A stretch of 64,000 nt of DNA from an uncultured Candidatus Rokubacteria bacterium (lineage in GTDB: Bacteria; Methylomirabilota; Methylomirabilia; Rokubacteriales; CSP1-6): contig CAVYTA010000006.1 in the NCBI GenBank assembly GCA_963771355.1, positions 1,824,001 to 1,888,000 of the forward strand, given 5' to 3'. Every line of letters begins with the position of its first letter. The stretch's first letter is position 1. The notes beneath the pieces were generated by a model, which saw only the letters and a program-made list of their open reading frames with translations, made no database searches and had not been told where the DNA came from. The position numbers and the translations under genes are program-made. This document shows positions 49,586 through 64,000 of this stretch, piece by piece.

Positions 49586-50493
49586 TAATCCCAGAGGTAG
49601 GAGCGGGGATTGACGGGCGAGCCCTTCACCTGGATCTCGTAATGCAGGTGCGGGCCCGACGAGCGGCCCGTATTTCCCGTGAAGGCGACGACCTGGCCGC
49701 GCTCCACCTGCTCCTCGGCCTGGACGCCCACGCGGGTGAGATGGCCGTACAACGTCTTGATGTCGTTTCCATGGTCGATGATGAGAGTGACCCCGTACTC
49801 CGCGTGCTGGCCCGCGTAGGTCACGATGCCGGGGGCGGGCGCCACCACCGGCGTCCCCCGCACGGCCCCGATGTCGAGCCCGCTGTGAACCTCGACGGAG
49901 TCATCCTGCCAGGGCGAGCTGCGGCGACCGAACTCGGAGTTGACGGAGCCGCGCACGGGCCAGCGAGACGGCAGCGAGGCCAGCACCCGGCTCGCCTTAC
50001 CGACGAAGCGCTCCAGCGACCGGAGACTCTGCCCCTCCTGGGTCACCACCGCGGCCAGACGCTCGAGCTCGTCTGCCACCGCGCCGCCCTCGTCCCCATC
50101 CACGTCCTTCGCGGCCGTGCGCCCGCCGATGCCGCTCTCACTCCGCTCCTGGCCCGCGTCGGGCCCGAAGGGCTGCCAGATCCGGTCGTGGAGGGCGCGC
50201 CAGCCGTCGACCTCGGCCCGGACGCGGGCCACGCGCTGCTGGAACCCCTCGAGCAGCCGCTGCTGATCCGCGAGCCGGGCCTGGAGCGCGGCGAATTCGG
50301 CGCGGTGGACGCGGAGCGCGGAGTAGTCGTGGTACCAGGCCCCGCCGGCGACGAGGAGCAGGCCGAGCAGCCCAACCGCCACCGAGACCAACCAGCGGGG
50401 GGCCGGGAGCCGTATCAGCCGACTGCCATCGGGACGCTCCACCACGACGTGAACTCGCTCGGCCGCCTGCTTCGGTCTCTGCTGTGCGCTCAA
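49585..50493 (-). CDS. M23 family metallopeptidase with N-terminal TM and coiled coil
   Basis: HSGLD, YGHL and GRSSGPHLHYE motifs. Confidence 0.93.
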   Translation of the reverse strand: MSAQQRPKQAAERVHVVVERPDGSRLIRLPAPRWLVSVAVGLLGLLLVAGGAWYHDYSALRVHRAEFAALQARLADQQRLLEGFQQRVARVRAEVDGWRALHDRIWQPFGPDAGQERSESGIGGRTAAKDVDGDEGGAVADELERLAAVVTQEGQSLRSLERFVGKASRVLASLPSRWPVRGSVNSEFGRRSSPWQDDSVEVHSGLDIGAVRGTPVVAPAPGIVTYAGQHAEYGVTLIIDHGNDIKTLYGHLTRVGVQAEEQVERGQVVAFTGNTGRSSGPHLHYEIQVKGSPVNPRSYLWD

Positions 50494-50720
50494 ATGGTCC
50501 TCGCCTCTCGGTGATGGCCGTCGTTCTTGATTTTCTCCCGGGACGCCGCTTGGGGGCGACGGGAGCGCTCGTCTTCGAGCGGACCAGGCACTGCCGGATG
50601 GGTGCCGGGAGGCCGTTTGCCCCTGCGGCTAGCGAGTTTGTAACATCGACTCCGGAGGGTGTCAACCCTGAATCGCCACGAATCGCCTCAGCTCTTGAGC
50701 CCATGCATCCGCTCGATTTG

Positions 50721-50750
50721 TTGACAGTTTTGACAAGGCAGGAGTATGAT
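50721..50750 (+). promoter_or_regulatory. Sigma70 promoter for alaC-hom
   Basis: TTGACA-N18-TATGAT; a second TTGACA at 50730. Confidence 0.6.
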
Positions 50751-50766
50751 TTTCGGCGGGTTTCCC

Positions 50767-51939
50767 ATGGACGACTTCTACCGCATCAAGCGCCTTCCTC
50801 CCTACGTCTTCGCCATTGTGAATGACCTCAAGGCCAAGGCCCGCGCCCGAGGGGAAGACGTCATCGATCTCGGCATGGGCAATCCCGACCAGGCCACCCC
50901 CAAGCACATCGTGGACAAGCTCGTCGAGGCGGCGCGCAATCCGCGCAATCATCGCTACTCGGCGTCCAAGGGCATCACGCGGCTGCGCAAGGCCATCACC
51001 ACCTGGTACGCGACCCGCTTCGGGGTGGAGCTCGATCCCGAGACCGAGGCCATCGCCACCATCGGCGCCAAGGAGGGGCTGGCCCATCTCGCCCTGGCCG
51101 TGCTCCAGCCGGGCGACGGCGCGCTGGTCCCGAACCCCACCTACCCCATCCACTCGTACTCGGTGGTCATCGCCGACGGAGACCTGCGCTCGGTGCCGCT
51201 GGTGCCGGGCGAGGACTTCTTCGCCCGCCTCACCGAGACCGCGCGCCTGTCGTGGCCCAAGGCCAAGCTGCTCATCCTGTCCTTTCCGCATAATCCCACC
51301 ACGCTCTGCGTGGACCGCGACTTCTTCGTCAAGGTGGTGGCGTTCGCCAAGGAGCACCACCTGATGGTGGTGCACGACTTTGCCTACGCGGATATCGCCT
51401 TCGACGGGTACCGGCCGCCCTCCTTCCTGGAGGTCCCGGGAGCCAAGGACGTCGGCGTGGAGTTCGTCTCGACGACGAAGTCCTACAACATGGCGGGCTG
51501 GCGGCTGGCCTTCTGCTGCGGCAACCGGCAGATGGTCACTGCGCTCGCGCGGATGAAGTCCTACCTCGACTACGGCGTGTTCCAGCCCATCCAGATCGCG
51601 GGCATCGTGGCGCTGGAAGGCGACCAGAAATGCGTGGCCGAGATCAACGAGCTGTACCGCCGCCGCCGCAACGTGCTCGTGGACGGGCTCAACAAGATCG
51701 GCTGGCAGGTGGAGAAGCCCAAGGGCACCATGTTCGTGTGGGCGCCGGTGCCCGAGGCCTTCCGAGCCATGGGCTCGCTCGAGTTCTCCAAGATGCTCAT
51801 CCAGGAGTGCAAGGTCGCGGTGTCCCCGGGCATCGGCTTCGGCGAGTACGGCGAGGGCCACGTCCGCTTCGCCCTCGTCGAGAACGAGCAGCGCATCAAG
51901 CAGGCGCTGCGCGGCCTCAAGACCCTCGCCTCCCGGTGA
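50767..51939 (+). CDS. alaC: PLP-dependent class I/II aminotransferase, AlaC-like
   Basis: [29 protein letters not shown] and [10 protein letters not shown] motifs. Confidence 0.85.
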
Positions 51940-51964
51940 AGCGCCCCGGGGCGGCCATCCCCGC

Positions 51965-53266
51965 ATGAACGAGATCAAGGTCGGTCTCCTCGGGCTCGGC
52001 ACCGTGGGCGCGGGCGTGGCGCGAATCCTCCAGACGCACGGCGCCGAGATGGAGGAGCGCGCCGGCTGCAAGCTCACGCTCGCCGCCATCGCAGACCTGG
52101 ACCTCGTCCGCCCGCGCGAGGGCCTGGACCTGGCGCGCCTGCCGCTGACCTCCGACGTGGAGCGCGTGCTCGGCGACCCCGCGGTGCACATCGTCATCGA
52201 GCTGGTGGGCGGACTGGAGCCCGCGCGCACCTTCATCCTGCGCGCGCTGGCCTCCGGCAAGCACGTGGTCACCGCCAACAAGGCCCTGCTCGCCCACCAC
52301 GGCCCGGAGCTCTTCGAGGAGGCGCGGCGGAACGGCGTGATGCTCGGCTTCGAGGCGGCGGTGGCGGGCGGCATTCCCCTCATCCGCGCCGTCAAGGACG
52401 GCCTGCCTGCGAACCGCATCCGCTCCGCCTTCGGCATCGTCAACGGAACGTGCAACTACATCCTGTCCAAGATGACCGACGAGGGCCTGGACTTCTCGGG
52501 TGTGCTCAAGGAAGCGCAGGCGCGCGGCTACGCGGAGGCCGACCCCACGCTGGACATCGAGGGGCTCGACTCCGCCCACAAGCTCCAGATCCTCGCCATG
52601 CTCGCCTTCCGCACCGCGGTGGATCTCAAGGACATCTACACCGAGGGGATCACGGGGGTCTCGCAGGCGGACGTGGTCAACGCCCGCGAGCTCGGCTACC
52701 GGATCAAGCTCCTCGCCATCGCCAAGGCGGGCGACGGCGCGCTGGAGGCCCGGGTGCATCCCACCATGATCCCGGCGATCTCGCCCATGGCCGCCGTCTC
52801 CGGCGTCTTCAACGCGGTCTTCATCACCGGCGACAACGTGGGGGACCTCATGTTCTACGGGCGCGGCGCGGGCCAGCTGCCCACCGCCTCCGCGGTGTGG
52901 TCGGACGCGCTGGACATCGCCCGTCGCGTGGCCCACGGCGTTCCCGCGCTCGCGGTGGACCTGCCCTCCGCCGCGCAGACGCCGCTCCCCATCCGGCCCA
53001 TCGACGACATCCGCACCGCCTACTACCTCCGCGTGATGGCCCTGGACCGGCCGGGTGTGCTCGCCCAGGTGGCGGGCATCCTGGGGCAGCACGGCATCTC
53101 GCTCGTCTCCGTGCTCCAGAAGACGCGCGCCGAGCAGCACGAGGCGGTGCCGGTGGTGATGATGACTCACGAGGCGCGCGAGCGCGACATGCGGGCCGCG
53201 CTGGCCGCCATCGACCGGCTGCCGGTGGTGGTCGGGCCCACCACCATGATCCGGGTCGAGGCCTGA
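51965..53266 (+). CDS. hom: Homoserine dehydrogenase with C-terminal ACT domain
   Basis: GLGTVG, VVTANK, FEAAVAGGIP, GYAEADP and DRPGVLA motifs. Confidence 0.97.
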   Translation: MNEIKVGLLGLGTVGAGVARILQTHGAEMEERAGCKLTLAAIADLDLVRPREGLDLARLPLTSDVERVLGDPAVHIVIELVGGLEPARTFILRALASGKHVVTANKALLAHHGPELFEEARRNGVMLGFEAAVAGGIPLIRAVKDGLPANRIRSAFGIVNGTCNYILSKMTDEGLDFSGVLKEAQARGYAEADPTLDIEGLDSAHKLQILAMLAFRTAVDLKDIYTEGITGVSQADVVNARELGYRIKLLAIAKAGDGALEARVHPTMIPAISPMAAVSGVFNAVFITGDNVGDLMFYGRGAGQLPTASAVWSDALDIARRVAHGVPALAVDLPSAAQTPLPIRPIDDIRTAYYLRVMALDRPGVLAQVAGILGQHGISLVSVLQKTRAEQHEAVPVVMMTHEARERDMRAALAAIDRLPVVVGPTTMIRVEA

Positions 53267-53297
53267 TGCCCGATCTCTCCGAGCGCTGACTCCGCGC

Positions 53298-54290
53298 GTG
53301 CCGTCGCGCGGACGGCTCCTCAAGATCGTCCTCGGGCTCGCGGTCAGCGCGGCCCTCATCGTGTATCTCTTCTCGCACGCGGACCTGCGCGCCATCGGTG
53401 CGCGCCTCGCCGACACGCACTGGGGCTTCCTCGCCGCGAGCGTCGCGCTGAGCCTCGGCTCCCTCTGGGCTCGGTCCCGGCGCTGGAGGTATCTCTTCCC
53501 GCCGGGCGCAAATCCCTCGGGCCTCTTCAACGCGGTGATGATCGGCTACATGGCCAATAACCTCCTTCCCCTTCGTGCGGGCGAGGTGGTCCGAGCCTAC
53601 GTGGTCACCCGGCGCGGTCAGCGCTTCTGGACCACGGTGACCACCATGGTGGTGGAGCGCGTGCTCGACGGGCTCGCCATCGGGCTCCTGCTCGCCTCGC
53701 TCTTCCTGCTCATCCCCGTCCCGCGCGAGCTCGAGTGGGCCGCCCTCGTCTTCCTCTCGTTAGATCTCGCCCTCATCGCCTTCCTGGGAGTCTTCGCTCT
53801 GGCGCCCACACGGTGCAACCGGCTGGCCCGCATCCTCACCGGCGGCCGCCCCTCGCTCGCCGCTCGGTTGGAACGGCTGCTCGACACCTTGGACCGCGGC
53901 CTCGCCGGGGTGCGGGCGCCGCGCCATGTCCTGCCCATGCTCGGCTGGTCCTGCGCCATCTGGATCGCGCAGGTGGCCTCCATCTGGGCCGGCTTTCACG
54001 CCGCGCGGCTGGATCTGCCGCTGGTGGCGGCCTGGACCACGCTGGCCTTTCTCGGCCTCGGGGTGAGCCTTCCGTCGAGCCCGGGCTTCGTCGGGGTGAT
54101 CCAAGCGGCGGTAGTCACGGCCCTCCGTCTCTTCAGCGTGCCGTACGACGACGCCCTGTCCTTCTCGCTGCTCTTCCACGTCTCGCAGTTCGTCCCCGTG
54201 ACCGTCTGGGGGCTGGTCTTGCTCTTCGTGGAGCACGTGAGCCTGGCCGAGGCCGTGCGGACCCAGGACGTTACCCAGGATCTACGCTAA
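53298..54290 (+). CDS. Lysylphosphatidylglycerol synthase TM / flippase-like membrane protein
   Basis: RW, NNLLPLRAGE, VERVLD and PSSPGFVG motifs. Confidence 0.9.
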   Translation: MPSRGRLLKIVLGLAVSAALIVYLFSHADLRAIGARLADTHWGFLAASVALSLGSLWARSRRWRYLFPPGANPSGLFNAVMIGYMANNLLPLRAGEVVRAYVVTRRGQRFWTTVTTMVVERVLDGLAIGLLLASLFLLIPVPRELEWAALVFLSLDLALIAFLGVFALAPTRCNRLARILTGGRPSLAARLERLLDTLDRGLAGVRAPRHVLPMLGWSCAIWIAQVASIWAGFHAARLDLPLVAAWTTLAFLGLGVSLPSSPGFVGVIQAAVVTALRLFSVPYDDALSFSLLFHVSQFVPVTVWGLVLLFVEHVSLAEAVRTQDVTQDLR

Positions 54291-54310
54291 CTTAGCCGGC
54301 ACCCCCGTGT

Positions 54311-54337
54311 GTAAACGGGGTCCCGCGGCCGCGCGTC
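54311..54337 (+). promoter_or_regulatory. ECF-type promoter upstream of the sigma gene
   Basis: GTAAAC-N17-CGTC, matching the general ECF AAC/CGT pattern. Confidence 0.55.
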
Positions 54338-54406
54338 TTACCAGCGAAGGGAAGCGGGGGAGGGCATTCGCCTATCCGCCCGCCACTAGGTGGCGCGCAT
54401 GAGCAT

Positions 54407-55009
54407 ATGGGAAGATCGGACCGAGACGAGTCCGTGGAGCCATCCGATGAAGCACTGTGCCGGAGCGTGGCAAATCGCGAGCCGGAGGCCTTCGACCTCC
54501 TCGTGGAGCGGTACCAGGAGCGGGCCTACCGGATCGCCTGGTCCGTCGTTCGCGATCGCGAGGACGCCAAGGATTGCGCCCAGGAAGCCTTCATCCGCCT
54601 GCACGACGCGGCGGGGTCCTTTGCCGGCGAGTCCAAGTTCTCGACCTGGTTCTACCGGATCCTGGTCAACTGCTGCCTCGACCATCGCCGCCGCGGACGC
54701 GGCTGGCGCCGCCTTCTCGTCTGGCGCGACGCCGAGGACGAGGACGAGGCCGGCGGTCTCGTCGAGCGCCAGCCGGCGCCGCCGGACGATCCCGGTGAGC
54801 GCATGGACGAGGATCAAAAGATGAGCCGGATCTGGGAGGCCGTGGAGACGCTCTCGCCCCAGCAACGCGCGGCGGTAACGCTGCAGTGCCGCGAGGGGCT
54901 GGCCACCAAGGAGATCGCGTCGGTGCTGGGCACCTCGGAGGCCACCGTCCGCGTGCACCTGCATCGGGCCTTCGCGACGCTCCGCCGCCGCGTGGGAGGC
55001 ACCCCGTGA
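54407..55009 (+). CDS. ECF RNA polymerase sigma factor
   Basis: DAKDCAQEAF, FSTWFYRI and region 4 EIASVLGTSEATVRVHLHRA. Confidence 0.95.
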   Translation: MGRSDRDESVEPSDEALCRSVANREPEAFDLLVERYQERAYRIAWSVVRDREDAKDCAQEAFIRLHDAAGSFAGESKFSTWFYRILVNCCLDHRRRGRGWRRLLVWRDAEDEDEAGGLVERQPAPPDDPGERMDEDQKMSRIWEAVETLSPQQRAAVTLQCREGLATKEIASVLGTSEATVRVHLHRAFATLRRRVGGTP

Positions 55010-55500
55010 CCGCGCATCCGTCCGACCGGCTGCTTCCCTATCTGCGCGGGGAGCTGGCCACCGCAGAGCGCGCGGCGGTGGACACCCATCTGGCCGTCTG
55101 CGCGGAGTGCCGCGACACCGTCCGGGACTTCGCCATCCTCGCGGAGCGGCTCGCCCGCGCGCCGGAGCCGGCGCCGCCGATTCACTGGGGCGCGTTCCGG
55201 GCCCAGCTCCACGAGAAGCTGGACCGCCGGGAGCGCCCCGTCGCGACCGGACGGCGCTGGTCGATGGGCCCCGTGCCCGCGACGCTGGCCGCCGGCCTCG
55301 CCGCGGTGCTGCTGTATCTGGGCGTGCTCGGCCCGGGCGCACTGACGCCCGTGGGCAATCAGGCCCTGCTGGAGGGCGAGGTGCTGGACGGCCGCCTCGA
55401 CGTGGTCTCGCAGCTCGATCTCGTCCAGAACCTGGACCTCTTCGAGGACTTCGACGCCATCGATCGGCTCGACCCCCTGGCACCGAGCGAGGAGAGCTGA
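55006..55500 (+). CDS. Zinc-finger (ZAS, zf-HC2) membrane anti-sigma factor
   Basis: GTGA coupling; HLAVCAEC (HxxxCxxC); one TM helix. Confidence 0.88.
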   Translation: MTAHPSDRLLPYLRGELATAERAAVDTHLAVCAECRDTVRDFAILAERLARAPEPAPPIHWGAFRAQLHEKLDRRERPVATGRRWSMGPVPATLAAGLAAVLLYLGVLGPGALTPVGNQALLEGEVLDGRLDVVSQLDLVQNLDLFEDFDAIDRLDPLAPSEES

Positions 55501-55504
55501 GGCC

Positions 55505-56155
55505 GTGTTGACACGGCTCTTCGTGGCCCTCGTGGCCGCGCTCGTCCTCGGGCTGGCCTCCCATCCCACGGGCGCCCAGTCGCCGCCCCCGGCGAGCCAT
55601 CCGCCCAGTGCAGACTTCGACAAGCTCTCGCCCGAGGAGCAGGCCGGGATGCGGCAGAAGCGGGAGCGCTGGCGCACGATGTCGCCCGAGCAGCGCGAGC
55701 AGGCCCTCGAGAAGTATCGCCACTGGAAGTCGCTCACCCCCGAGGAGCAGCAGCAGGCGCGGCAGAACAAGGAGCGCCTCCAGCGCTTGACGCCGGCCGA
55801 GCGCGCCCAGATCCTCCACGATTTCCAGCGCTGGAACGAGCTGCCGGCGGAGCGCCGGCAGGAGCTGGAGCAGGCCCACGATCGCTTCCAGAAGCTGCCG
55901 CCCGAGCGCCAGCAGCAGATCATGGAGCGGCTGCGCCGGTACCAGAGCCTCTCGCCCGAGGAGCGAGAACGGGTGGACAAGAATCTCGAGCGCTGGCGGA
56001 ACATGTCCCCCGAGGAGCGCCAGAAGGCCCGCGAGGCCATGCGCGAGCGCCGCCGCGACCGCGAGACGGACGGCGGCACGCCGACCCGCCCGCGCGCCGG
56101 CGATCCCTCCGGCGTCGTCCCCGGTGCTCCGGGCGGAGCCGGGCCCAACCGGTAG
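55505..56155 (+). CDS. DUF3106-like periplasmic helical repeat protein
   Basis: Signal peptide; ~18-aa repeats (W/F)xx(L/M)(S/T/P)PE(E/Q)R. Confidence 0.85.
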
Positions 56156-56181
56156 CGGGTCATATGGTAAATTGGCCCCTC

Positions 56182-57411
56182 ATGGGCCAGTTGATCGTCC
56201 AGAAGTACGGCGGCTCTTCAGTCGCCGATCCCGAGAAGATCAAGAACGTGGCCCGCCGCGTGGCCGAGGGTGCGCGCCAGGGCCACCGCATGGTGGTGGT
56301 GGTCTCGGCCATGGGCAAGACCACCGACTCCCTCATCGCCCTCGCCGGCGCCATCACCCCGATGCCGGATCCGCGCGAGATGGACATGCTGCTCGCCACC
56401 GGCGAGCAGGTCACCATCGGGCTCCTCGCCATGGCGCTGCAGGCCATGGGCCACCCCGCCCGCTCCTTCACCGGGCCGCAGGTGGGCATGGTCACGGACG
56501 ACGCGCACACGCGCGCCCGCATCAAGCGCATCACCGCCGAGCGGATCGGCGCCGCGCTCGCCGCGGGGAAGGTGGCGGTGGTGGCGGGCTTCCAGGGCAT
56601 GACCGAGGCCGGCGACATCACCACGCTGGGCCGCGGCGGCTCCGACCTGACCGGGGTGGCACTGGCCGCCGCGCTGAAGGCCGACGTGTGCGAGATCTTC
56701 ACCGACGTGGACGGTGTCTACACCGCGGACCCCAACGTGGTGCCGGACGCCCGCAAGCTCGCCCGGGTCTCTTACGACGAGATGCTCGAGATGGCCGCGC
56801 TGGGGGCCAGGGTCCTCCAGGCCCGCTCGGTGGAGTTCGCCAAGAAGTACAGCGTGCCCGTCCATGTGCGCTCGACGTTCAAGTCCGACCCGGGCACGCT
56901 GGTGACGAGGGAGGATCTCAGCATGGAAGAGGTGGTGGTCACCGGCATCACCCACGATCGGGGCCAGGCGAAGCTCTCGATTCTCCGCGTCCCCGACCGC
57001 CCGGGCATCGCCTCGCGGGTCTTCGGCTCGCTCGGCAGCCAGAACATCGTGGTGGACATGATCGTGCAGAACATCAGTCGCGACGGTTACACCGACATCT
57101 CCTTCACCCTCGCCCGCGCCGATCGCGCCCGCGCCGAGCAGGTGCTGGGCAACGTGGGCAAGGAGGTGGGCGCCTCCGGGGTGATGGCGGACGACCGCGT
57201 GGCCAAGGTGTCCATCGTGGGCGTGGGCATGCGCAGCCACGCCGGGGTGGCGGCGCGGATGTTCGATACGCTGTCCCGGGAAGGCGTCAACATCCAGATG
57301 ATCTCCACCTCGGAAATCGCGGTGTCCTGCGTGATCGAGGACAAGTACACCGAGCTCGCGGTGCGGGCACTCCACGACGCCTTCGAGCTGGGCAAGGAGC
57401 GAGGAGCCTGA
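56182..57411 (+). CDS. lysC: Aspartate kinase
   Basis: [29 protein letters not shown] and two ACT domains. Confidence 0.97.
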
Positions 57412-57413
57412 CC

Positions 57414-58529
57414 ATGGCGCAGACCGCGACCGCCGCCGTCTTCTTCGGACCGGGCAAGCCCTTCGAGGTGCGCGCGGTTCCCATCCCCGAGGTGGAGCCC
57501 GAGGGCGTTCTGATCCGCGTGACCCGCGCGAGCATCTGCGGGAGCGATCTGCACTTCTGGCGCGGCGACGCCCCCCTGAAGTACCCGGAGGACGGCTGGA
57601 TCTTCGGCCATGAGATGACGGGGACGGTGGCGCGCCTCGGGGCCAAGGTGAAGACGGACTCGCTGGGCCGCGCGCTCAAGGAAGGCGACCGCGTCGCCTA
57701 CACCTACTTCTACCCGTGTGGGCGATGCCATGCCTGCCTGCACAAGGAGCCCGCGGCCTGCCCCAACAAGATCGAGCGGCCGCTCGGCCCCAGCGCGTTC
57801 CCGCATCTGCACGGCGCCTTCGCCGACCACTACTATCTCCGCCCCGGCGGCGCCATTTTCAAGGTGCCGGACACGCTGTCCGACGACGTGGTCGCCCCCG
57901 TCAACTGTGCGCTGTCCCAGGTGCTCTACGGGCTCTGGGTGGCCGGGGTGCGGATGGGTGATCGGGTGATCATCCAGGGCGCGGGCGGGCTCGGCGTCCA
58001 GGCGGCCGCGGTGGCCAAGGACATGGGCGCCTCCTGCGTCATCGTGGTGGACCAGATTCCCGGCCGTCTGGAGCTGGCACGCGCCTTCGGCGCCGACCAC
58101 ACGCTGAACATCAAGGAGATGCCGGAGCGGCGCGACCGCGTGAAGCAGGTGCGGCAGTGGACGGAGGGGGTCGGCGCCGACGTGGCCTGCGACTTCGTGG
58201 GGTTTCCCGCCGTCATCCCGGAGGGCATCGAGATGCTCCGGTCGGGCGGCACCTATCTGGAGATCGGCACCATCAGCCGCGGGGCCAAGATCGACCTCGA
58301 GCCGTCCCTCCTGGTGTGGGGGTCGAAGAAGATCCTGGGCGTGATCCAGTACGATCCGTGGGTGATTCCGCGCGCGCTCGACTTCCTGGTGCGCACCCGC
58401 GAGCGCTTCCCGTGGAGCCGGATCATCTCCCACAAGTTCCCGCTCGCCCAGATCAACGAGGCGTTCGCCGCCTCGGAGTGGCACAACAAGGACACCCTCA
58501 ACATCACGCGCGCCGCGCTGGTTCCCTAG
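57414..58529 (+). CDS. Zinc-dependent alcohol dehydrogenase (MDR)
   Basis: ICGSD, GHE, CGRCHAC...C and GAGGLG motifs. Confidence 0.93.
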   Translation: MAQTATAAVFFGPGKPFEVRAVPIPEVEPEGVLIRVTRASICGSDLHFWRGDAPLKYPEDGWIFGHEMTGTVARLGAKVKTDSLGRALKEGDRVAYTYFYPCGRCHACLHKEPAACPNKIERPLGPSAFPHLHGAFADHYYLRPGGAIFKVPDTLSDDVVAPVNCALSQVLYGLWVAGVRMGDRVIIQGAGGLGVQAAAVAKDMGASCVIVVDQIPGRLELARAFGADHTLNIKEMPERRDRVKQVRQWTEGVGADVACDFVGFPAVIPEGIEMLRSGGTYLEIGTISRGAKIDLEPSLLVWGSKKILGVIQYDPWVIPRALDFLVRTRERFPWSRIISHKFPLAQINEAFAASEWHNKDTLNITRAALVP

Positions 58530-58554
58530 CACCGGAAGGAGAGGCGAGCATCCC

Positions 58555-58959
58555 ATGGAAGCCGAGTCGCCGGCTGTCCCGCCGCAGGCCACCATCCTGG
58601 TCGTCGACGACGACGATCCGGTGCGCGCGTTCGTCAGCGACGCGCTCGCCAGCGAAGGCTACACCGTCGTCGACACCGCCGATCCGCTCGAGGCCCGGCG
58701 CATCGTCACCTCCCGCACCGTTGACCTCCTGCTCACCGACGTCGTCATGCCGAGGATGAACGGGATCGAGCTGGCGGAGCGCGTCGAGGTAACCAGCTCC
58801 GCGACCAAGGTGCTGCTGATGTCGGGCTACATGACCGCCCTCATGAAGGCCTCCGGCCGGCCCATCCTCACGAAGCCCTTCACCATCGACGGCCTGCTGC
58901 GCGCCGTCCGCGAGGCCCTGGGCGGGCCAGCCGCGTTCCGGCGGTCCCCTCCGCGCTAG
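58555..58959 (+). CDS. Single-domain response regulator receiver
   Basis: AAGGAG RBS; ILVVDDD, TDVVMP, MSG and KPF motifs. Confidence 0.92.
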   Translation: MEAESPAVPPQATILVVDDDDPVRAFVSDALASEGYTVVDTADPLEARRIVTSRTVDLLLTDVVMPRMNGIELAERVEVTSSATKVLLMSGYMTALMKASGRPILTKPFTIDGLLRAVREALGGPAAFRRSPPR

Positions 58960-58986
58960 GCCGCCCACCCGAAGGGGCCGGGGCGG
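58960..58986. terminator. GC hairpin between convergent genes, possible bidirectional terminator
   Basis: ccgccc-a-ccc[gaag]ggg-ccg-gggcgg; no U-tract. Confidence 0.35.
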
Positions 58987-61506
58987 TCAGCGGATGGCCG
59001 CGGCCTTGACCTGCCGGTAGTCGGTGATGCCCTGCAGGGCCTTGAGGATCCCGTCCTGCACCATCGTGGTCATGCCCTCGCGCTTGGCGCGGGCGAGGAG
59101 CTGGGGCACGCGCGCCCCCTTCTGCATGCGGCGCTTGATGGCGTCAGTGCCGATCAAGAGCTCGTGGATGGCGATCCGCTCCCGGTATCCCTTGCCCTCG
59201 CACTGCTCGCAGCCCACGCTCTCGTAGAGCTCGACGTCGTCCGTGTAACGGTACCCCTGCCGCTCGAGCTCCTCGACGCCGAAGGCCTCCGCCAGCTCGT
59301 TCCAGTCGCGGCGCGTGGGGTGGTAGGGCCGCCGGCAATCGGGGCACAGGCGCTTCACGAGGCGCTGCGCGAGCACGCCGAGGAGCGCGTCGGAGAAATT
59401 GTACGCGTTGAGGCCCAGGTCCAGCAGTCGGACGACGGTCTCCACCGCGCTGTTGGTGTGGAGCGTGCTCAGCACCAGGTGCCCGGTGAGGGAGGCCTCC
59501 ACCGCGAGGCCCGCCGTCTCCGGATCGCGCATCTCCCCGACCATGATGACATCGGGATCGGCCCGCAGCAGGGCGCGCATCGCGGCGGCGAAGGTGTAGC
59601 CGATCTTGGGGCGCACCTGCACTTGCCGGAGCCCGTCCTGCGTGATCTCGACGGGGTCCTCGGCGGTCCAGATCTTCCGCGTCCCCGTGTTGAGGTGCCC
59701 CAGCACGGCGTGGAGCGAGGTCGTCTTGCCGGCGCCGGTGGGGCCCACGCTGAGGATGAGGCCGTAGGGCTTCTCCGCGATGGCCTTGAGCTCGCGGAGG
59801 TTGCGGTCGCTGAGGCCCAGGTGCTCGAGGGTCAAGAGGCCCGACGAGCCCAGGAGACGGAGCACCACGTCCTCGTTGCCGCCCACGGTCGGCACGGTGG
59901 CCACGCGGAGCTCGATGTCGCTCCGGCCCGGCGTGCGCACCCGGATCTTCCCGTCCTGGGGCTTGCGACGCTCGGCGATGTCGAGCCCCGCCATGATCTT
60001 GAGGCGCGCCACCAGAGGATTCCGGAGCGTGGGCGGGATGCGCTGGTAGTCCACGCAGGTGCCGTCCACGCGGAAGCGGATCGCCGTGTCCCGCGTATTC
60101 CCGCGGGGCTCGAGGTGGATGTCGGACGCGCGGGCCCGGTGGGCGTCGAGGATGATCTGGTTGGCCAGCCGGACGACCATGCTGTCGTTCTCGCTGATCT
60201 CCGCGTTGCCGGCCTCGGGAGCGTCCTCCGTGACCGGCTCCGCCGCCACCTCGCCGAGAATCTCGACCACCGTCCCCGGCCGCCCCTCGGTCCCCGTCAT
60301 CTCGTCCAGCGCGCCCAGGATGCGCTCGCGGACGGCCACCACCAGGGTGACCTTGCGCGGCCGGAGCACCGCCTCGATGGCGTCGACCTTGAGGAGATCG
60401 TGCGGATCGTCCACCGCGACGGTGACCACGTCGCCCACGCGTTTGATCGGCAGCCAGGCACCCGCTCGTAGCCTCGGCCGCTGCAGGCCCGACAGGAGCT
60501 CGGGCGACAGGACCGTCCGCTCGTCGAGGGAGACGTAGGGGCAGCGATAGTAGAGGGTGAGCGCGGCGGCGAGGTCGGCCTCGCGGATACCGTGAACCTC
60601 GAGCAGGATCGACTCGACGCTGACCTGACGCTGCCGGGCCTCGGTGGTGGCGTGGGCGAGCTGCGCCCGGGTGGCGAGGCGCTGGGCGATGAGGTAGTCG
60701 AACTTCGACATCCGGCCGTTGCGGCCTGGCGGCCGGGAGGGCGCCTCGGGCGCCGGCGGAGCCGGCTCCGGGACCTCGGGACGGGGAGTGGGAAGTGGCC
60801 GGCTGGTGGCGCGGGAGGCGGGAACCCGCAGGTTCGCGCGCTGATAGTCCGCGACGGTTTCCATCCGGCACAGCGTCGCGTCGCGAAACTGGATCCGCTG
60901 GCCTGCCTGCTCCCAGACCGCGGGGCCCCCATTGCCCGGCACGTCCAGCCACGCGGCGTCCTCGCGCCGGACGAGCGCCAGGCCGGCGGGCACACCGCCG
61001 ATCGCGGCCCATAGCGACGTCCCCGGACGCGCGCGCGCGGCGGCGAGGAAGCGATCGACCACCGGACTCCGCAGCACGTCGCACCGGATCACCAGGACGT
61101 CGCCGTTGAGCTCGGTGCCGAGGCGTGCCAGGATCGCGCCCTCCGGCTCGTCGGCGGGAACCCGCAGGAAGTCGAGCGCGATCCCCCACCGCTCGCCCGT
61201 CCCCAGCAGACGCTCGACCTGTTCGGCATGAGAGCCGAGCACGACCAGCGCGGAGCGGATGCCGGCGGCGCGGAGCGATTCCAGGGCGAGCTCGGCAAGC
61301 GTCACTCCGGCGACGGAGAGGAGCGCGGCGCAGGTGTCCTGAGTGAGCGCGCGCAGCCCCTCGGGGGCGGTATGAGCGAGGAGCACGGCGTGGAGGCCGT
61401 CGGGTCCCGGATCCGAGCCGGCCAAGGGAAGCTGGGGACGCGCATCCGCGACGGCGGCCGATTTGCTTCTAGACTTGTCTACTTCCGAGGGGGCGGTGGT
61501 GTGCAT
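58987..61506 (-). CDS. PilB/GspE secretion ATPase fused to an N-terminal degenerate sugar-nucleotidyltransferase domain
   Basis: C-terminal: ASDIH, GPTGAGKT, EDPVE, LRADPDVIMVGEMRD, TGHLVLSTLHTN, CPDC..CEQC. N-terminal: AVLLA...LRALT...LLSVAG...GERWGI. Start at 61506 or 61554. Confidence 0.88.
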   Translation of the reverse strand: MHTTAPSEVDKSRSKSAAVADARPQLPLAGSDPGPDGLHAVLLAHTAPEGLRALTQDTCAALLSVAGVTLAELALESLRAAGIRSALVVLGSHAEQVERLLGTGERWGIALDFLRVPADEPEGAILARLGTELNGDVLVIRCDVLRSPVVDRFLAAARARPGTSLWAAIGGVPAGLALVRREDAAWLDVPGNGGPAVWEQAGQRIQFRDATLCRMETVADYQRANLRVPASRATSRPLPTPRPEVPEPAPPAPEAPSRPPGRNGRMSKFDYLIAQRLATRAQLAHATTEARQRQVSVESILLEVHGIREADLAAALTLYYRCPYVSLDERTVLSPELLSGLQRPRLRAGAWLPIKRVGDVVTVAVDDPHDLLKVDAIEAVLRPRKVTLVVAVRERILGALDEMTGTEGRPGTVVEILGEVAAEPVTEDAPEAGNAEISENDSMVVRLANQIILDAHRARASDIHLEPRGNTRDTAIRFRVDGTCVDYQRIPPTLRNPLVARLKIMAGLDIAERRKPQDGKIRVRTPGRSDIELRVATVPTVGGNEDVVLRLLGSSGLLTLEHLGLSDRNLRELKAIAEKPYGLILSVGPTGAGKTTSLHAVLGHLNTGTRKIWTAEDPVEITQDGLRQVQVRPKIGYTFAAAMRALLRADPDVIMVGEMRDPETAGLAVEASLTGHLVLSTLHTNSAVETVVRLLDLGLNAYNFSDALLGVLAQRLVKRLCPDCRRPYHPTRRDWNELAEAFGVEELERQGYRYTDDVELYESVGCEQCEGKGYRERIAIHELLIGTDAIKRRMQKGARVPQLLARAKREGMTTMVQDGILKALQGITDYRQVKAAAIR

Positions 61507-61774
61507 GCCGGTCAATGGGAGCAAGCGGAATGCCAGGGGCCTTCCGGGGGACATCGCCGCCTAAGTATTCGGAAAAGCGTATCTGATCGAAGGGTGCGAG
61601 GGCTCTTGAAGAGTCGCGGCAGGCTACAAACTTTGGTAGAGAGCATCCGCATCTCGGGAGCCTGACGCCCGCGTCACACGTCGACCCCGAAAAGATCTGC
61701 ATGGTGTGGACACCGCGCCGCCCCATTGGCTTCCCCGTTCACCACCGGGTATTCTCCGGGGCGAGGAGGACAAC

Positions 61775-62707
61775 ATGAACGTCGGGTTCATCGGGCTGGG
61801 GCTCATGGGTGGGAGCATGGCGTCGAACCTCCAGGCCGCGGGGCACACGCTCGCGGTCAACGATCTCCGGAAGGAGTCCGCGGCACCGCACCTCGCCAAG
61901 GGTGCCGCATGGAAGGACACGCCGCGGGCGGTGGCCGAGGTGAGCGACGTGGTCTTCACCTCGCTCCCCGGCCCACCCGAGGTGACCGCGGTCGCGACCG
62001 GCGCCAACGGCCTGCTCGACGGGATGCAGCGCGGGAGCGCCCTCTTCGACCTCTCCACCAATTCCCCCGCCGCGATCCGCCGGCTGCACGCGACATTCGC
62101 CACGAAGGGCATTCACGTTCTGGACGCCCCGGTGAGCGGCGGCCCCTCCGGAGCCAAGTCGCGCAAGCTGGCGATCTGGGTGGGCGGCGACCGCGCGCTC
62201 TTCGACCAGCATCGTCCGCTGCTCGAGGCGATGGGTGATCAGCCGTACTACGTCGGCCCCATCGGCGCCGGAGCGGTGGCCAAGCTCGTCCACAACTGCG
62301 CGAGCTTCACCATCCGCGCCGTCCTGGCCGAGGTGTTCTGCATGGGCGTCAAGGCCGGCGTGGAGCCCGAGCTCCTCTGGCAGGCCGTCCGCCAGGGGGC
62401 CACCGGGCGCGCGCGCACCTTCGACCGGCTCATGGACAAGTTCCTGCCCGGCACCTACGAGCCGCCCTCCTTCGCGCTCAAGCTGGGCCACAAGGACGTC
62501 TCGCTGGCCACCGAGCTGGGCCGCGAGGTGGGGGTGCCCATGCGGCTGGCCAACCTCGCCCTGGCGGAGATGACCGAGGCGCTCAATCGCGGCTGGGGTG
62601 AGCGCGACTCCAGCAGCTTCATGCAGCTGGAAGAGGAGCGGGCGGGCGTGAAGATCGCGGTGCCGCCGGCGCGGCTGCGCGAGATGATCGAGCGCGACGG
62701 CGCGTGA
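61775..62707 (+). CDS. 3-hydroxyisobutyrate dehydrogenase family NAD(P)-dependent oxidoreductase
   Basis: GAGGAGG RBS; GFIGLGLMG, DAPVSGG and AKLVHN motifs. Confidence 0.93.
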   Translation: MNVGFIGLGLMGGSMASNLQAAGHTLAVNDLRKESAAPHLAKGAAWKDTPRAVAEVSDVVFTSLPGPPEVTAVATGANGLLDGMQRGSALFDLSTNSPAAIRRLHATFATKGIHVLDAPVSGGPSGAKSRKLAIWVGGDRALFDQHRPLLEAMGDQPYYVGPIGAGAVAKLVHNCASFTIRAVLAEVFCMGVKAGVEPELLWQAVRQGATGRARTFDRLMDKFLPGTYEPPSFALKLGHKDVSLATELGREVGVPMRLANLALAEMTEALNRGWGERDSSSFMQLEEERAGVKIAVPPARLREMIERDGA

Positions 62708-62729
62708 GGGAGACGGTGGGAGCGCCTGC

Positions 62730-63261
62730 CTAGCCGCCGCGGATCTGCGTGCAGCCGAGCGAATACGCCTCCCGCGGCTCGGTGCGGGTCGGATATCGGC
62801 GGTAGAGATCCGTGAGCTGCTCGCACGGGCCCGAGCGGCCGGGCATCACCGGTAGCGCGGAGAGGGCGCGCAGATGCGCGGCGACCAGTCGGAACGCCAC
62901 GCCCTCCTCGACCCCCCAGGCGCGCACCATGACCTCCACCGACTTCGCGTTGGCGTCCAGCTCCTGCTGGGGCGGCCGCGGGTCGGCCGCATCGGAGTGC
63001 CCGAGGATATGGTGCGCGAGCTCATGCGCGAGAGCGGCCGAGCCGGAGTCGTTCGTCAGGAGCGCCCGGCCCAGCACGATCCGGCCCCGCTCATAACGAC
63101 TCGCCCCGCCCGGCTCCAACTCGACCCGCACCGGCGCCATCTCATAGGCGTGCACCGCCGCGTCGGCCAGTCGCTGGGCGCCCCGGAGGTTCACCTCGTC
63201 GACCGGGCGTGAGCCCGGCACAGCCCGCCAGGAGTCCGGCGAGCAGCACGACACGCTTCAT
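62730..63261 (-). pseudogene. Small HExxH metallopeptidase-like lipoprotein with a 1-nt frameshift after the signal peptide
   Basis: MKRVVLLAGLLAGC (lipobox) AGLTP, then one extra base near 63205 before VDEVNL...LAHELAHHILGH...QELDAN. Confidence 0.7.
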
Positions 63262-63630
63262 CGCCAGACAGGCTCGCCGGATCGCCATCGGCCCTATCCT
63301 CCGGGAGCGGACACGCGAGCGCAACCGACGGCGTGTACCCGAACCGACACGTCCTCGGCCCGCTCAGGAACCGCAGAAAGATGGGACTCCCGACACGGCA
63401 GAGGGCGGCACGACACAGCACCGGACGCCGAACGGGGCTGACTACGGTGTATCCACCCCGGCGACACTTCTCTACCGCTCGCGCTAGAGTCGGCCCGCCA
63501 TGCCCGGCTATGGATCGGACTCCCGTTTGAGGGCTCGGTGCGGGCGGTTGCCGTCACAAGAAGATCACGTTGGCCAGGACGAGCGGGCATCAGAGTTGAA
63601 GAATCCACGGGCAGCGGCTACTATCGGCCC

Positions 63631-63933
63631 ATGAAGCTCTGGCTAGTGGCCCTGCTATTCGTTGACCTGGCGCTCCCGATGGCTCCCGGCGCGTTCCAGC
63701 CCCTCGAAGGGCCATCCGTTGAGGTCGCCCGGCGTCTGACAGTTCAAGCCGCTGCCGCCGTCGTCCCGCCGCCGTCGCTTCAACCGCGGTGCCCCATCGC
63801 GCCGCATACTGCTCCGCGAATCTCGATGGGCCGTGCCTCGCGGCGAGAAGTTGCCCGCACCTTCACCGCCCAGAAGAACCCGCAGGAATCAGAAGCGCCG
63901 ATTTCAGAAGCTGACCCGCCGCTCCCCTCCTAG
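63631..63933 (+). CDS. Hypothetical protein with hydrophobic N-terminus
   Basis: MKLWLVALLFVDLALPMAPGAF...; weak codon bias and no recognisable family. Confidence 0.4.
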   Translation: MKLWLVALLFVDLALPMAPGAFQPLEGPSVEVARRLTVQAAAAVVPPPSLQPRCPIAPHTAPRISMGRASRREVARTFTAQKNPQESEAPISEADPPLPS

Positions 63934-64000
63934 CTCCTAGCTGATCCTGTCTGCTCCGCTAGTCCAACGGCCGAAGTTCGCCGTCTGGCAAGTCAAACGG

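Follow-up and report, generated by a model that had tools for sequence, protein, structure and literature searches.

What does a pilus or secretion motor do with a sugar-nucleotidyltransferase domain that has lost its catalytic residues? This question is raised by a gene on the reverse strand of a 64,000-nucleotide stretch of an uncultured Candidatus Rokubacteria genome (contig CAVYTA010000006.1; the whole stretch is called the window, and plain coordinates refer to it), in which a nucleotidyltransferase-fold domain and a PilB/GspE-type ATPase form a single 855-codon frame (58987-61554). The fusion is a real, undescribed and genus-restricted architecture composed of known parts and folds; no description of it was found in the open-access literature. 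As developed below, we tentatively favour an auxiliary, sigma-54-induced motor that would work in trans, with the dead domain as a docking or allosteric module in the place of a lost GAF sensor.

A pseudo-nucleotidyltransferase domain joined to an extension ATPase

A Pfam scan of the 855-codon frame placed T2SSE at residues 455-849, MshEN at 336-425 and a sub-threshold NTP_transf_3 match at 77-187 (E 2.5e-5, 25 bits vs. a cut-off of 27). Together with a motif scan, it found the proline-rich linker, the KFDYL segment (residues 284-288), MshEN, T2SSE and the Cys4 motif (residues 737-785) where the initial annotation, made from the sequence alone, had put them (Table 1). The single open frame and the N-terminal nucleotidyltransferase pattern claimed there also stand, whereas two boundaries have to be moved: the domain covers about residues 54-243 rather than the whole N-terminal ~240 residues, and the true start is likely Met17 (ATG at 61506), yielding a protein of 839 amino acids, because a conserved sigma-54 promoter overlaps codons 7-12 of the frame.

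Neither a stop nor a misassembly was found in the linker, which is crossed without gaps by contigs from runs of two studies; a 2583-nt contig covers 59720-62302 with 5 differing letters and no gaps, and a 2777-nt piece covers 58400-61176 with 8 and no gaps, although one of the two junction-spanning contigs could stem from the source sample. The junction is also carried by seven other genomes and by metagenome loci, so that misassembly is ruled out. Contigs of the gene are scattered in two RNA libraries, one running past the promoter; these are not counted as evidence of expression.

The nucleotidyltransferase fold, proposed from the sequence pattern, was confirmed by structure prediction. The model of the domain (AlphaFold, 132 sequences) has a predicted local distance difference score (pLDDT) of 93 and a predicted template modelling score (pTM) of 0.90, and its best structural matches are MurU and RmlA (Foldseek E 3e-11). 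It aligns with MurU over 186 residues (Z 21.0, root-mean-square deviation 2.7), with eIF2B (5b04; Z 19.9) and with the GMPPA/GMPPB entry 7d72 (Z 18.8), and thus has the pyrophosphorylase alpha/beta fold. Sequence profiles point the same way, with an NCBIfam MurU match below its cut-off (residues 55-163, E 1.7e-9) and weak GlmU and RmlA matches over residues 55-170; an Atlas look-up returned generic nucleotidyltransferase clusters only, and a full-length model (21 sequences; pLDDT 39.6, pTM 0.26) was uninformative.

In alignments to MurU and two enzymes of this genome, AVLLAHTAPEGLRALTQDTCAALL falls on the GxGxR loop of MurU and RmlA but has other residues in place of the glycines, Arg and Lys; these loop, Lys and Asp residues are presumably the catalytic ones, and the two Asp positions we take to be metal-binding. 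The GxGxR loop is present in 0/19 fusions, compared to 9/9 controls, which were chosen by a pattern containing its first Gly, so that this test is partly circular. The Lys after the loop is Ala in 16/19 fusions, and the position of the second Asp is Arg (R230) in all 19. The EKP sugar-binding subdomain occurs in 6/9 controls and in none of the fusions; the domain is shorter by about 40 amino acids, and a hairpin joins the strands that flank the deletion. The claimed loss of the catalytic signature thus extends to every aligned fusion and, judged by these residues, the domain fails the tests of an active sugar-1-phosphate nucleotidyltransferase (RmlA/MurU/GMPP). That the gene encodes some unusual residual transferase activity, or is an assembly artefact, is hardly credible: the first Asp (D159) is retained in 16/19 fusions, but the losses include the glycine loop, Arg, Lys, the second Asp and the sugar subdomain, and the independent contigs and seven other genomes have already refuted the artefact. 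Pyrophosphorylase folds without catalysis have precedents in the regulators GMPPA and eIF2B gamma/epsilon, which, unlike the truncated, motor-fused domain described here, still have an LbH domain and control either a paralogous enzyme or a translation factor; GlgD and GalF are further non-catalytic regulators of this fold.

As for the presence of the fusion in other genomes, it was found in 8/8 genomes of the genus (domain E below 1e-77), whereas a profile search of 251 phylum genomes, many of them incomplete (E 1e-15), found the domain in 0 of the 243 others. When residues 50-250 were compared with the protein collection, 24 proteins were retrieved: 20 full fusions (including the window's own cluster, and one of them frameshifted in the ATPase), another copy with a frameshift and three relatives without the fusion. 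Two further, divergent fusions were retrieved with the N1 region as query. Among 16 metagenome loci with the domain, the frame continues into KFD in 15 and as far as Walker A in 12. Methylomirabilota is the source's label for one homologue, and we infer that the carriers are Rokubacteriales-type soil bacteria. The most divergent fusion (L182, P0027; 55% in the domain) has another gene neighbourhood and the same promoter type, and may come from outside the genus.

Across the eight genomes, the ratio of nonsynonymous to synonymous substitution (dN/dS, by simple counting in high-GC genomes with no housekeeping control) was 0.23 in the domain and 0.59 in the linker; N1 had 0.32 and both ATPase domains 0.19. 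The domain is therefore under purifying selection about as strong as that on the ATPase.

Table 1 Features of the fusion gene and its upstream region (window coordinates).
Feature	Position	Strand	Remarks
Imperfect palindrome, candidate activator site	61624-61639		88 nt upstream of promoter
Sigma-54 (-24/-12) promoter motif	61520-61536	-	conserved; 18/19 upstream regions
Longest open frame of fusion gene	58987-61554	-	855 codons, open reading frame listing
Variable N-terminal leader, residues 17-53, predicted disordered	61396-61506	-	unconserved in alignment
Pseudo-nucleotidyltransferase domain, residues 54-243	60826-61395	-	fold intact; glycine loop, Arg, Lys, second Asp, sugar subdomain lost
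Pro-rich linker, residues 244-280	60715-60825	-	genus-wide mean identity 32%
N1 domain (MshEN/GSPII fold)	60280-60714	-	begins KFDYL; without c-di-GMP motif
N2 domain of extension ATPase, about residues 455-570	59845-60192	-
ATPase C-terminal domain	58990-59844	-	contains the five motifs below
Walker A	59719-59745	-
Asp box	59647-59667	-
Walker B	59524-59553	-
His box	59452-59469	-
Cys4	59200-59346	-

Descent of the domain

In a profile search of 1.84 billion representatives, the next matches after fragments of the fusion are proteins of about 490 residues that form one family and carry the annotations 'NDP-sugar synthase' or 'sugar transferase'; in them, the pseudo-nucleotidyltransferase domain is followed by LbH and a degenerate sugar-transferase domain. 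This family is the nearest relative of the domain (53% to P0022, profile E 1e-51). These donors have the same dead domain subfamily as the fusion, with the same losses and the same deleted subdomain. Among 90 full-length members, the loop reads Asp-Arg-x-Gly-x-Glu, GxGxR is left in one and the EKP subdomain in three. Thus, catalysis was lost before the fusion, and the degeneration is no evidence of adaptation to motor gating. The fusion differs from the donors in containing their first domain only, up to its last helix, with no LbH or membrane part, and in the donor-conserved residues Asp61, Arg62, Gly64 and Glu66, which have become His, Ser, Pro and Gly.

The 80 donor loci examined come from named genomes (Thiocapsa, Methylococcaceae, Binataceae, Deltaproteobacteria, Acidobacteriota and others). 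The best 56 of them are exopolysaccharide clusters, and across all 80 a priming-transferase match is found in 67 and a WecG glycosyltransferase match in 66; none contains a match to either ATPase query. The fusion has neither a WecG nor a priming-transferase neighbour. The domain was likely picked up from such an exopolysaccharide (slime-synthesis) gene, probably from outside, because no unfused donor was found in the profile search of the 251 phylum genomes and the WecG family was not found in 8/8 genus genomes. No other long fusion of the domain was found, although this is a weak test; the ten longest donors are ordinary. In the donor loci L037-L092, genes of an anti-sigma/STAS/SpoIIE partner switch adjoin the pseudoenzyme in 29, 15 and 13 of 56 loci, respectively.

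The ATPase clade and the sigma-54 promoters of its GAF-less copies

The motor part is intact, as had been claimed together with its Zn-Cys4: Walker A, Asp box, Walker B, His box and Arg finger are present in 19/19 fusions and Cys4 in 18/19. An N1 (GSPII) domain precedes N2 (Pfam MshEN E 1e-13, with alignment to the N1 of PilB), and the best solved match of the motor is the M. xanthus-type PilB entry 3jc8 (E 6e-108). The N1-N2-C-terminal domain layout, the ATPase motifs and Cys4 are shared with PilB, GspE and MshE (PDB 3JC8, 5TSG, 5ZFR; Vibrio cholerae MshE), but the fusion has an additional N-terminal domain, no platform gene nearby and no motif for cyclic di-GMP (c-di-GMP), and it scores below the equivalog cut-offs of both PilB (TIGR02538, 479 vs. 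676) and GspE (TIGR02533, 456 vs. 630). The MshEN c-di-GMP motif (RLGxx..G....L...L..Q), of which Gly11 is required for binding according to PMC5013675, occurs in 0/19 fusions, where KFD replaces RLG, whereas both PilB copies of the genome match it. The MshEN segment is therefore degenerate, as proposed, although this is a trait of the ATPase clade and not specific to the fusion.

The same N1 type is present in 100/251 phylum genomes, with a GAF domain in most copies inspected; an N-terminal GAF was found in L155 and, by motif, in 26 copies of the clade. No paper on this KFDYL/GAF clade was found in the literature. In a quick tree (44 rows), the 11 fusions group on a single branch (support 98) within the KFDYL clade (100), which is separated from four paralogues of the genome with support 100; L023 (the G006 fusion, represented by P0012), the broken L153 copy and the split L164 copy were left out. 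The fusion branch adjoins GAF-less copies of two other genera (97, 92), tentatively, given the long branches. With GAF-bearing KFDYL ATPases, such as P0030, a GspE/PulE family protein of Pseudoduganella, the fusion shares the N1 signature and the tree branch, but it has no GAF (Pfam scan); instead, the pseudo-nucleotidyltransferase domain occupies the position of the GAF sensor in 26 relatives, downstream of a sigma-54 promoter. A GAF query against this genome gave just two weak matches elsewhere. Besides the fusion, the genus has one other GAF-less copy, a short paralogue next to nadE. This paralogue (L028:8360-10258; G000:C6:618359-620257) apparently retains only the last GAF helix; it is found near nadE in 8/8 genus genomes, with the G006 copy broken, and has a conserved sigma-54 promoter and upstream boxes of its own.

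Given its position in the GAF slot, the domain might, like GMPPA towards GMPPB, act as an allosteric gate of the motor by binding a small phosphate-containing molecule, be it a nucleotide, a second messenger or, with lower probability, an NDP-sugar; we consider this possible, though on balance unlikely. Charged residues near the former active site are common to donors and fusions (E136, R144, R157, D159, R162), R230 is invariant in the 19 fusions, and these retained Arg and Asp residues keep a ligand open; moreover, GMPPA binds GDP-mannose without catalysis (PMC11228364). Conversely, the glycine loop is substituted by the bulkier His-Ser-Asp-Pro, the EKP subdomain is absent from every fusion, and the four loop residues conserved in the donors have changed. 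The initial annotation had proposed a dead nucleotide- or NDP-sugar-sensing domain gating the motor: the fold, the dead site in 19/19, the purifying selection and the GAF position uphold it in part, whereas NDP-sugar sensing is weakened because the sugar subdomain is missing, the loop is filled and the donor Asp-Arg-x-Gly-x-Glu is altered.

Upstream, a sigma-54 motif precedes 18/19 fusions, the 19th having one extra base, and the first ATG lies 12-15 nt past it in 16/18; rpoN is present in the genome. The fusion message is thus likely nearly leaderless, with translation from Met17. A relaxed motif lies 220-293 nt before KFD in 11/11 unfused GAF-less copies (from the genus and four genomes outside it), in one case identical to the 16 letters of the window, compared to 1/26 GAF copies, where it lies 624 nt upstream of KFD within the GAF-coding stretch. 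The chance rate is 0.005 per 300 nt, but these counts include kin and are not independent, and four of 12 further loci are without a readable frame. In 14 fusions, leader and linker total 57-87 residues, similar to the tails of unfused copies. Because these lengths match and the promoter type is shared, the likely site of insertion is the disordered tail of a GAF-less motor that was already under sigma-54 control.

The eleven unfused GAF-less copies, with the same promoter type and no such domain, would also fit a tolerated passenger or spacer in a flexible tail that at most stabilises or spaces the hexamer, control being purely transcriptional, and the limitation of the fusion to one genus among 251 genomes would agree with this. 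We regard such a passenger as quite unlikely, given that the whole domain is kept in 8/8 genomes and down to about 55% identity, with dN/dS lower than in the adjacent N1, whereas a true passenger should show the erosion seen in the linker.

A palindrome-like element, 82-88 nt upstream, is shared by both GAF-less genes and otherwise found at 1 of 193 relaxed sigma-54 sites, a comparison in which the element was defined after the fact from these same promoters; it remains with the promoter where a PilZ gene intervenes. No enhancer shared with the pilA or the exopolysaccharide promoter was found. The major pilin and one other pilin have sigma-54-like motifs, and a sigma-54 activator gene lies beside pilA. 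Genome-wide, there are 46 strict sigma-54 motifs, with a cluster at C1:108-158 kb; by reading of N-termini, strict motifs precede universal stress proteins, Ku, a priming sugar transferase and two likely PEP-CTERM proteins.

The motif at one of the two priming transferases of the genome (C6:768814) and the gene context of the donors would speak for the idea that the fusion is a non-pilus signalling ATPase for exopolysaccharide, tied by its domain to the priming transferase; this would extend the role of PilB in M. xanthus, which controls exopolysaccharide there (PMC11656802). Such a role seems improbable, since the conserved neighbours of the fusion include no sugar gene, the candidate enhancer is not shared with the promoter of the priming transferase and all motor domains are retained.

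Setting, proposed role and meaning

No pilus or type II secretion genes were found among the open reading frames at 50000-64000 (listing, with five frames domain-scanned), and the platform, secretin, PilM and pilin matches of the genome all lie outside the window, in agreement with the isolation of the gene noted in the initial annotation. The genome has three PilC/GspF loci, one Tad locus and six extension ATPases, so that a platform-less motor could act in trans. An auxiliary extension motor has a precedent in Acinetobacter baylyi TfpB, where two ATPases serve one pilus (PMC11656802, section 11). The fusion belongs to another subfamily (NCBIfam TfpB 383 bits vs. a cut-off of 850), and the available text of that review mentions no such fused domain.

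The explanation favoured, tentatively, over a small-ligand sensor, a passenger and an exopolysaccharide regulator, in that order, is that of the auxiliary motor with a docking or allosteric module. Under this scenario, a duplicate of the phylum's GAF-ATPase would have lost its GAF domain and come under a sigma-54 promoter, leaving a flexible tail of 60-90 residues, into which, in the ancestor of the genus, the N-terminal domain of an exopolysaccharide-locus pseudoenzyme would have been inserted. The hexamer would engage a PilC/GspF platform encoded elsewhere, most plausibly the one of the type IVa pilus (the major pilin of this system has a sigma-54-like promoter as well), while a partner protein bound by the inserted domains would recruit or restrain the motor. 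The lead candidate for this partner would be a priming sugar transferase, because the donor proteins adjoin one. What favours docking is the conserved fold, together with the deleted sugar site, the filled nucleotide loop and the drift of the donor signature.

Several observations weigh against this explanation. Purifying selection would be equally expected of a domain that needs merely to remain folded. GAF-less copies without a folded N-terminal domain persist, including the second copy in the same genomes, so that the module is dispensable for this ATPase type. The LbH domain of the donors was not carried over, and a contact with WecG, not found in the genus genomes searched, cannot have been retained from the ancestor, by which docking to WecG was rejected. 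One of the 16 metagenome loci (L180) has a shortened domain and no ATPase downstream. Finally, extension ATPases are usually tied to one machine, according to PMC11656802.

Among the neighbours, comEA-comEC lies 3-7 kb from the fusion wherever contigs reach. A competence link was rejected: the order lysC-ADH-(variable slot)-comEA is found in 13/13 loci of other genera, none with the fusion in the slot, and the proximity is therefore background. The interval from lysC-ADH to comEA-comEC (window 58529-64000; L247-L259) is a variable slot that holds unrelated genes in each genus of the family. It includes, in part of the genus, a small protein with a weak Peptidase_M78 (HExxH) match (62730-63254), whose annotated start is possibly too short. 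PilZ was likewise rejected as a partner, being found just upstream in only 3/8 genomes and 3/16 metagenome loci and not in this genome, where a PilZ homologue lies elsewhere (C7:458501-458782). The small PilZ gene upstream of the fusion promoter (L021:8141-8461, L023:7653-7943, L024:11190-11462, L169-L171) has RxxxR and DxSxxG-like motifs. The second PilB of the genome (G000:C6:2153284-2155527), with an ATPase nearly identical to that of the first and a long Pro-rich N-terminal extension, lies between Roadblock-like genes, away from a platform gene.

What activates extension ATPases, and for what reason bacteria have several of them, are open questions. A 2024 review (PMC11656802) covers c-di-GMP and partner proteins; the terms 'GAF', 'fused' and 'nucleotidyltransferase' do not occur in its text. 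Although limited to a single uncultured genus and made of known folds, the fusion shows that one ATPase clade exists in three forms (with GAF, without GAF under sigma-54, and without GAF but with a pseudoenzyme domain inserted), which make up a natural domain-swap series. The 190-residue domain is a compact, confidently modelled, membrane-free representative of the exopolysaccharide-locus pseudoenzymes. It is doubtful that it also still reads the initiation of exopolysaccharide, as the donor would, by binding the priming transferase or a precursor linked to a nucleotide, and so wires the motor to matrix synthesis; if it does, the motor would be gated by a pseudoenzyme, and the domain would offer a first soluble handle on this widespread, unstudied family of pseudoenzymes.

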